This document shows, piece by piece, positions 20,444 through 20,871 of a DNA stretch of 64,000 nt (position 1 is its first letter; every line of letters begins with the position of its first letter). The notes under the pieces were generated by a model that saw only the letters and a program-made list of their open reading frames with translations, made no database searches and was not told the origin of the DNA. This stretch comes from Nitrospirota bacterium. Its GTDB lineage: Bacteria > Nitrospirota > Thermodesulfovibrionia > Thermodesulfovibrionales > SM23-35. The stretch lies in the NCBI GenBank assembly GCA_963826355.1, contig CAWGWX010000034.1, forward strand, positions 85,023 through 149,022, written 5' to 3'. A program made the position numbers and the translations under genes.

Positions 20444-20611
20444 ATGAAAAAGCTGGCAAAAAAATTGGAAAGGCTCTTTACAGCAGCAGCTTTCGCAGAG
20501 GCAGGTGAGCACGACACGGCAAGAGAAATACTCAGGGAAGAGGAAAGACCCCGGCAAGTTAACCGTATATCACCACGTAAAGAGTTAAGAGCACCAGGAA
20601 TAGAAAGGTAA
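20444..20611 (+). CDS. 55-aa peptide carrying the FAEAGE helix motif (not in ORF track)
   Basis: SD AAGGAGGT; MKKLAKKLERLFTAAAFAEAGEHDTAREILREEERPRQVNRISPRKELRAPGIER. Confidence 0.8.
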   Translation: MKKLAKKLERLFTAAAFAEAGEHDTAREILREEERPRQVNRISPRKELRAPGIER

Positions 20612-20691
20612 TAAACGATGACATGTAAGAGGGTCTAATGGTATGGTGCTGGTAAAAATAAATGGATTTAATTAAAAGGAGGTTGTAAAAG

Positions 20692-20871
20692 ATGAAAAAG
20701 CTGGCAAAAAAATTGGAAAGGCTCTTTACAGCAGCAGCTTTCGCAGAGGCAGGTGAGCACGACACGGCAAGAGAAATACTCAGGGAAGAGGAAAGACCCC
20801 GGGAAGTTGACCGTATATCACCTACTGTGAGAGGCAGAAAAGAACTCAGGGCCCCCGGAATAAAAAGGTAA
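20692..20871 (+). CDS. 59-aa peptide, tandem paralog (not in ORF track)
   Basis: SD AAGGAGGT; MKKLAKKLERLFTAAAFAEAGEHDTAREILREEERPREVDRISPTVRGRKELRAPGIKR. Confidence 0.8.
   Translation: MKKLAKKLERLFTAAAFAEAGEHDTAREILREEERPREVDRISPTVRGRKELRAPGIKR

Follow-up and report, generated by a model that had tools for sequence, protein, structure and literature searches.

What do two very small open reading frames (ORFs) do directly ahead of a gene for a Lon protease, and are they genes at all? The question is raised by a stretch of 64,000 nucleotides from a Nitrospirota bacterium of the order Thermodesulfovibrionales (GenBank assembly GCA_963826355.1, contig CAWGWX010000034.1, positions 85,023 to 149,022 of the forward strand), hereafter the window, in which tandem ORFs of 55 and 59 residues (copies A and B) precede lon. 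Comparative sequence evidence argues that both are genuine genes and that they belong to a small-protein family that is conserved and so far uncharacterised. Each product combines a hairpin with a C-terminal tail, and the tailed form co-occurs across genomes with a Lon protease that carries a built-in receiver domain (REC-Lon). We therefore favor a direct functional partnership of the tailed peptide with REC-Lon, as substrate or as adaptor, to which we assign a probability of about 0.55.

Two small genes for a hairpin with a basic tail

The DNA of copies A and B is identical from the region of the ribosome-binding site (RBS) through codon 37, and the sequence AAGGAGGT stands before each start codon (coordinates in Table 1). 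From codon 38 onward the copies are distinguished by a four-codon indel and ten codon differences, seven synonymous and three non-synonymous, which corresponds to a synonymous divergence (dS) of 0.95 and a non-synonymous divergence (dN) of 0.13 beyond codon 37. In a search of 5.8 billion protein clusters, all 101 candidates were homologous at E ≤ 0.01, and 76 of the 101 are exactly 59 residues long. They stem mostly from Nitrospirota metagenome bins, and those that bear a name are called 'hypothetical protein' in public annotations. Matches in the Protein Atlas were likewise only unnamed 'hypothetical protein' clusters, with 231, 59, and 93 members. Scanning one genome per species delivered at least 254 confirmed loci in Nitrospirota and Desulfobacterota, together with a few bins labelled otherwise. 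Among nine orthologues, every pair with a computable dS gave a dN/dS of 0.06–0.29, while dS was saturated in the remaining pairs, whose dN did not exceed 0.34. Because of the 101 homologues, the conserved length of 59 residues and these dN/dS values, the two ORFs are taken as real genes. The original prediction, made from the letters of the window, had described two unannotated ORFs of 55 and 59 residues with a common N-terminal stretch of 37 residues. This description was accurate in all points but one: 'unannotated' applies to the ORFs of the window, but not to their homologues, which are already called in public annotations.

An AlphaFold2 (AF2) model, based on 89 sequences, consists of a helix (residues 2–19), a turn at A-G-E, a second helix (residues 23–32) and a coil. 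Its mean confidence (pLDDT) is 75.5, with values of about 88–93 over residues 1–30 and of 56–65 over the tail. Each peptide is thus predicted to form a single helix-turn-helix (FAEAGE...TAREIL), similar to a tetratricopeptide repeat (TPR), followed by a disordered tail rich in Arg, Lys, and Pro. Positions conserved in at least 90% of the 89 sequences are A, F, E, A, G, E, a later A and the pair I, L of the hairpin, plus L52, R53, A54, P55, and G56 of the tail. In distant members, this C-terminal element is reduced to (L/M/I)(R/S)A(P/S/A/E/D), located at the chain end or close to it. The tail is basic and proline-rich, lacks Cys and contains few Ser or Thr residues. The peptides had been regarded as essentially a free-standing FAEAGE motif; this view missed the second conserved element at the C-terminus.

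The predicted hairpin shares with the TPR (PF07721 and relatives) a helix-turn-helix of about 34 residues and small residues at packing positions. By our own reading, the spacing of F17, G21, A26, and L30 fits TPR positions 11, 15, 20, and 24. Sub-threshold matches to TPR_4, TPR_6, TPR_14, TPR_2, TPR_19, and TPR_12 recur among members of the family. However, curated thresholds were not reached: TPR_4 (PF07721) matched with E 0.019–0.02 and 16 bits against a cut-off of 27, and even among relatives with several repeats the best TPR score was 21.2 bits. Unlike TPRs, which form arrays of at least three adjacent repeats in a contiguous superhelix, the hairpin is single in the window peptides or occurs as two to four units with long, variable linkers in relatives, and it has a signature of its own, A-x-x-F-A-E-A-G-E-x-x-T-A. 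The FimV/HubP C-terminal model TIGR03504 stayed below its threshold (14.9–15.1 against 30.65 bits), and the NCBIfam model VPA0252 was rejected (15.6 bits against a cut-off of 100). Neither a Pfam or NCBIfam family nor any model of a Lon adaptor or regulator family matched the window peptides above cut-off.

Tailed peptides and a receiver-containing Lon protease

The distribution of both proteins was compared in 150 genomes of the class, based on the best 150 matches per search. A peptide counted as tailed if its profile match extended at least to position 52, and REC-Lon was defined as a contiguous match that starts at or before Lon residue 20 and extends to residue 260, within an ORF of at least 530 residues or one cut by a contig end. 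Among the matches listed, 44 genomes possess a tailed peptide and 46 a REC-Lon, with both in 40 and neither in 100; some of those with the module are Thermodesulfovibrio-like. Expressed differently, REC-Lon was among the matches listed for 40 of the 44 genomes with a tailed peptide, compared to 6 of the 106 genomes without. When every form is counted, 100 of the 150 genomes possess the hairpin, and for 57 of these neither a tailed peptide nor a REC-Lon was found. Consequently, it is the tailed free form rather than the hairpin that tracks REC-Lon, and the comparative signal ties Lon to the C-terminal tail instead of the FAEAGE hairpin.

Results from Desulfobacterota are similar. In the order of locus L050, 14 of 15 genomes comprise both proteins, while the fifteenth has neither. 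Five Desulfobacterota genomes without a Lon near the peptide all encode REC-Lon elsewhere, and on one chromosome a distance of 1.77 Mb separates the two genes. REC-Lon was found in none of the five genomes whose small hairpin peptides carry other tails. The tie of the free peptides to the neighboring Lon, which had been proposed for the window, thus gains comparative, genome-wide support for the tailed form.

The protease itself looks active and regulatable, judged from its translation. It reached 724.8 bits against the LonA model TIGR00763 (cut-off 608), and Pfam recognizes the S16 protease domain (Lon_C, E 1.1e-83), AAA, Lon_lid, and Response_reg (residues 121–230). Walker A, the catalytic Ser in PKDGPSAG and the Lys in GGIKEK are all present, and so are the DD acidic pocket, the phospho-acceptor D, the T and the K of the receiver. 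No match to PF02190, the substrate-binding N-terminal LON domain, was obtained for REC-Lon. The alignment to Bacillus subtilis Lon (3m6a) begins within the helical region and is interrupted between chain residues 102 and 103, exactly at the point of receiver insertion. The NCBIfam models for CpdR and RssB match this receiver, yet below cut-off. As a side observation, ORFs of about 375–430 residues match the N-terminal helical region plus the receiver of Lon (residues ~10–255, 41–53% identity) and are too short for the whole protease; they occur in genomes G107, G067, G053, G075, G105, G093, G121, G029, G065, G041, G117, G097, and G081, and may represent truncated or differently fused relatives of REC-Lon.

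Since the tailed peptide is found almost only in genomes with REC-Lon, it is probably a dedicated partner or a substrate of this protease. Contact between the two, the parts that would touch and the direction of the effect are inferred. In the mechanism that we envision, the sigma-54 promoter, presumably driven by the divergent histidine kinase and its NtrC-type activator, would transcribe the peptide genes together with those of REC-Lon and of a universal stress protein (USP)-like protein with its own N-terminal hairpin (hairpin-USP protein). REC-Lon would have lost its substrate-binding N-domain and gained a receiver domain. The tail would engage REC-Lon either as a degron, making the peptide a short-lived regulator, or as the tether of an adaptor. 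The hairpin in turn would act as a docking module like the one on USP-like and receiver proteins, so that the peptide might, as a substrate, compete with such proteins or occupy the site that they use, or, as an adaptor or activator, bridge them to the N-domain-less Lon. A more specific version is tentative and rather unlikely: the peptide might be a detachable, sigma-54-induced recognition subunit, whose LRAP tail plugs into REC-Lon and whose hairpin recognizes or mimics the tag of USP and receiver proteins, with the phosphorylated receiver as a gate.

Several points weigh against a direct partnership. Four of the 44 genomes with a tailed peptide have the peptide alone; REC-Lon was not found there with the query used, and their completeness is 85–100%. 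Conversely, five to six genomes possess REC-Lon without the peptide, one of the six having a peptide cut by a contig end. Beyond the best 150 matches, 183 weaker peptide matches exist, and related genomes are not independent samples. Co-occurrence could furthermore stem from membership in one regulon and not from contact. Hydrophobic and aromatic residues, which are typical of described Lon degrons, are not abundant in the tail. In addition, the search for rpoN did not find this gene in the assembly to which the window belongs (G000, 74% complete, 1.48 Mb). It was found in five of five relatives with the module, however, and the window alone encodes two sigma-54 activators; rpoN of this genome is probably located in the unassembled part.

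A further point concerns gene neighborhood. Within about 6 kb around 60 loci with a full-length free peptide, we counted the hairpin-USP gene at least 42 times, the activator at least 32, REC-Lon at least 31, and the kinase at least 24 times; since many contigs are short, these numbers are lower bounds. When counted by motif, 47 of 53 tailed-peptide loci contained a USP-length hairpin ORF. Gene order varies, with lon located between peptide and USP gene as in the window, divergent, or several kilobases off. The gene immediately downstream of the peptide is of the USP type in 22 of the 60 loci and lon in 10.

This neighborhood points to the chief rival, which we hold to be a real if lesser possibility: the peptide might work only with hairpin-USP and other hairpin-bearing signaling proteins, for example by pairing hairpins or by capping a site that binds them, and Lon would merely be co-regulated within a sigma-54 stress regulon without touching the peptide. 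Hairpin-USP is indeed the commonest immediate neighbor. In Desulfobacterota, the peptide is followed by a hairpin-USP ORF of 190 residues, and relatives with two to four hairpins per chain are what one would expect of units that pack together. The 160-residue protein encoded in the window itself most likely has a USP fold, as its AF2 model (pLDDT 81.6) gave 33 Foldseek matches in the PDB at E ≤ 0.001, with USPs on top (3tnj, E 1.6e-6). In Pfam, no match of this protein to Usp (PF00582) was obtained. Its USP-like relatives score 16.6–31.1 bits against a cut-off of 24, which one of them passes (P0191, 31.1 bits). By reading, the 160-residue protein lacks the glycine-rich nucleotide-binding motif of ATP-binding USPs.

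However, a peptide devoted to hairpin-USP would leave one pattern unexplained: the LRAP-type tail tracks REC-Lon, whereas hairpin-USP proteins and peptides with other tails occur without it. Evidence for co-variation or concerted evolution of peptide and USP hairpins did not persist either. The raw comparison (0.489 against 0.465, permutation p ~0.0002) lost its signal once nearest relatives were considered: the own-genome USP hairpin minus the five nearest relatives gave a mean of -0.009, with 20 pairs above and 26 below zero. A predicted co-fold of the peptide with the 160-residue hairpin-USP protein scored 0.00; controls were not folded and the value weighs neither way.

Promoter, duplication and less likely readings

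A sigma-54 promoter ahead of the ORFs had been part of the original prediction. The site TGGCACAAAAGATGCT is the sole exact match to TGGCAC-N6-TGCW within the window, while 0.14 would be expected and 14 of 100 shuffles contain at least one. Taken alone, such a match is weak evidence. Yet TGGCA(C/T) recurs at the aligned position of each of the nine orthologous upstream regions compared, and divergent genes for a sigma-54 activator and a histidine kinase are adjacent. GG and GC elements ten bases apart (TGGCAC-N5-TTGC) and conservation among orthologues, the hallmarks of a sigma-54 promoter, are present. Several orthologues have a degenerate -12 element (ATGTG, ATGAT, TTGTT). Over all motif genes, a strict sigma-54 regular expression gave few matches, and a scored scan detected promoter-like sites (at least 9 of 11 positions) in 14 of 102 regions upstream of motif-gene clusters, compared to 35 of 2040 random stretches of 200 nt. 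Aligned orthologues were more informative about the promoter than either scan.

The operon of kinase and activator shares its intergenic region with the peptide promoter and runs in the opposite direction. A palindrome-like element within this region is a candidate binding site of the adjacent activator. One might speculate that the peptide is a feedback regulator of this kinase or activator, similar to small proteins that bind enhancer-binding proteins, and that it shuts off or sustains its own promoter. The two regulators are divergent neighbors of the peptide, syntenic in 24–32 of the 60 loci, and the peptide gene comes first behind the promoter that they presumably control. Nevertheless, we regard such feedback as very unlikely. 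Some loci with no activator within 6 kb, such as L050, nevertheless retain the tailed peptide. As receiver-only matches show, NtrC-type activators are present in every genome searched, whether or not it has the peptide, so the phylogenetic profile does not single them out.

Since only TGGTATGGTGCTGGTA, a poor promoter match, precedes copy B, it is probably co-transcribed with copy A. Between peptide and lon, the terminator scan called no intrinsic terminator. A stem-loop is located there in a 101-nt stretch with a folding energy of -24.1 kcal/mol (z -2.1; 6 of 200 shuffles fold equally well), and the beginning of its sequence is also found in the closest relative L001. It may be a processing or stabilizing element or a partial terminator.

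The tandem arrangement is specific to this strain. L001, whose neighboring genes are 95–99% identical, has one copy of the copy-B type. In public sequencing runs, an 8.5-kb contig of a related strain joins position 20509 to 20766, which is the single-copy form, and in another contig the copy-A position continues into a tail of the copy-B type; none of the independent contigs found in these runs spans both copies. The idea that duplication had raised the dose of the peptides is therefore weak, as L001 and two related strains get along with a single copy. Between the copies lies a diverged version of the promoter region, and the copy A tail differs mainly at synonymous sites. Both observations speak for a real, older duplication with later homogenization of its 5' half, and against an assembly loop. 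Independent of this locus, tandem small hairpin peptides with different tails were observed at L030, L043, and L047 (Desulfobacterota) and at L010. Duplication of the small gene has thus occurred more than once.

Two further readings are highly improbable. The first would take the peptide as a precursor of a ribosomally synthesized and post-translationally modified peptide (RiPP), with the hairpin as leader, the tail as core and the Lon-type protease as processing enzyme; small tandem genes with identical N-terminal and differing C-terminal parts beside a protease would fit, but the tail is conserved instead of variable and has the Cys-free composition given above, the conserved neighborhood consists of kinase, activator, Lon, and USP-like genes without modification or export genes as known from RiPP clusters, the duplication is strain-specific, and the hairpin is also fused to cytoplasmic domains. 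The second would deny the peptide any function, leaving either a leader ORF that regulates lon translation only or an assembly artifact. The tandem form is indeed known only from this assembly, contigs of related strains being single-copy, and the peptides lack RNA contig coverage: metatranscriptome run X20 gave two 151-nt contigs inside lon (21004..21154 and 21169..21319) and none over the peptides, although contigs cannot show absence, and as the library may contain DNA, coverage there can establish neither expression nor silence. Against this stand the strong purifying selection at the amino-acid level, the conserved length, the retention of the peptide gene where lon is divergent, distant or 1.77 Mb away, and the diverged spacer, which an assembly loop would not create.

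The hairpin beyond the peptides and its known counterparts

A profile of the motif (34 residues) run on the six-frame translation of the window returned as its top eight matches the eight motif copies that had been noticed in the sequence. Six of them scored 62.2, 61.9, 58.7, 54.1, 41.8, and 37.2 bits, the frameshifted copy in 35652 scored 26.2 and the remnant after 10671 scored 17.7 bits, while the ninth match reached 5.3 bits and the best match on reversed sequences 5.5 bits. The eight copies thus stand. Three of them are remnants or broken, among them the copy at 32354. The latter lies inside a segmental copy that is ~95% identical over ~570 nt and whose similarity ends after about 50 codons of the 23128 gene; it is thus a truncated remnant instead of an independent architecture. 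Fragments of an IS1595-family transposase follow directly after the 160-residue gene (23649..24496) and may mark the edge of the rearranged region behind this duplicate. An intact version of the 35652 architecture was found at L054, L061, L072, and L080.

The two receiver tails (13944 and 27471) are sound, and the hairpin is the tail of a family of 152-residue receivers. For receiver 27471, the best 120 relatives have 151–160 residues, 112 of the 120 cover at least 97%, and all 40 distinct tails inspected contain the motif. On a larger scale, among 1.84 billion cluster representatives, a hairpin-only profile (47 sequences) matched 1613 proteins at E ≤ 1e-3, of which 269 also reached E ≤ 1e-10; many of the 1613 have two to four hairpin copies. 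Members inspected comprise repeats alone, repeats with an LRAPG or LRAPS tail, and one to four repeats before a USP-like domain. Overall, the hairpin occurs free, repeated, before or inside USP-like domains and as receiver tail, with the position before USP-like domains being the commonest. By these sequence matches, it is a widespread, uncharacterized module, and portable as originally suggested.

Table 1. Position and properties of the features discussed (window coordinates)
Feature	Position	Strand	Remarks
Copy A	20444..20611	+	55 residues; hairpin plus tail four codons shorter, RKELRAPGIER
Copy B	20692..20871	+	59 residues; ends ELRAPGIKR; orthologue of the relatives' single copy
RBS	20429..20436 (copy A), 20676..20683 (copy B)	+	AAGGAGGT
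REC-Lon, LonA type	20954..23131	+	receiver (~residues 114–239) between N-terminal helical region and AAA+ module
Hairpin-USP protein	23128..23610	+	160 residues; N-terminal hairpin, then USP-like alpha/beta domain
Sigma-54-type promoter	20386..20401	+	TGGCAC-N5-ATGCT; 44 nt before first start codon
TGTTGCA-N3-TGCA palindrome-like element	20294..20307	+	~90 nt upstream of promoter; conserved in orthologous upstream alignment
HAMP histidine kinase	18636..20138	-	divergent from peptide genes; Pfam
REC-AAA-HTH sigma-54 activator	17275..18639	-	divergent operon 17275..20138 with kinase; Pfam
RNA stem-loop	20887..20932	+	between copy B and lon; stable, without U-tract
Receiver C-terminal hairpin tail	14301..14399	+	receiver 13944..14402; 37.2 bits
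Receiver C-terminal hairpin tail	27474..27572	-	receiver 27471..27929; 41.8 bits
Truncated segmental duplicate	31929..32545	+	lon 3' fragment (31929..32357, Lon_C) plus first ~50 codons of 23128 gene (32354..32545)
USP-like gene with hairpin after second strand	35652..36145	+	one-base frameshift inside motif; 26.2 bits, second half in other frame
Receiver-tail remnant after 10671	11102..11137	+	12 residues, out of frame, bounded by stops; 17.7 bits, E 3e-4

Further signaling genes surround this locus. Cassettes of single-domain receiver, TauE-type sulfite-exporter-like and tandem-USP genes are repeated three to four times (9372..16628, 25144..29122, 36203..37120) and look like paralogous signaling and stress units. 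The segment 29119..31808 contains a second HAMP kinase (30309..31808), which resembles that at 18636..20138, together with a REC-kinase hybrid. A further pair of kinase and sigma-54 activator is encoded at 32639..35549. At least two sigma-54 two-component sets are thus part of the island.

To our knowledge, adaptors or dedicated small partners are known for few Lon proteases only. LarA, HspQ, and phage T4 PinA belong to these small LonA partners. The same holds for SmiA, a Lon adaptor of Bacillus subtilis (PMC9204741). By analogy, the peptide is a small protein tied to Lon and could prime, tether or inhibit it. In contrast to these proteins, to which no sequence relationship was found with Pfam and NCBIfam, it is known from comparative genomics, and the Lon in question has an inserted receiver but no N-domain. 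A coupling of phosphorylation-type receiver domains to AAA+ proteolysis is known from other systems as well: RssB and CpdR are receiver-type adaptors of ClpXP (PMC7226468), and FixT is a single-domain receiver and a Lon substrate (PMC7078487, contained in the reference list of PMC12471899). The window likewise encodes two hairpin-tailed receivers. It differs from these systems, to which no sequence relationship of the peptide was found either, in that the protease chain itself contains the receiver and that a 59-residue protein of hairpin and tail is the candidate partner. An N-terminal or inserted hairpin is furthermore absent from the described USP family PF00582, whereas USP-like domains are the hairpin's commonest fusion partner. 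Among the papers listed from the literature searched, supplements aside, no description of the peptide family was found, and the sole match to FAEAGE was unrelated. In our classification, the peptide is a putative small AAA+ protease partner with a TPR-like module.

If the peptide indeed acted as a recognition subunit, it would belong to a proteolysis system under two-component control that is new to the literature and common among Nitrospirota and Desulfobacterota. The analysis further defines an unnamed hairpin module in more than 1000 protein clusters, mostly of USP-like and receiver proteins from sulfate-reducing and nitrite-oxidizing lineages. For the question of how a Lon protease without N-domain chooses its substrates, a candidate partner of 59 residues, which is easily synthesized, gives an entry point. 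With a tail motif to mutate and a protease that contains a built-in phosphorylation switch, a direct in vitro test is feasible.

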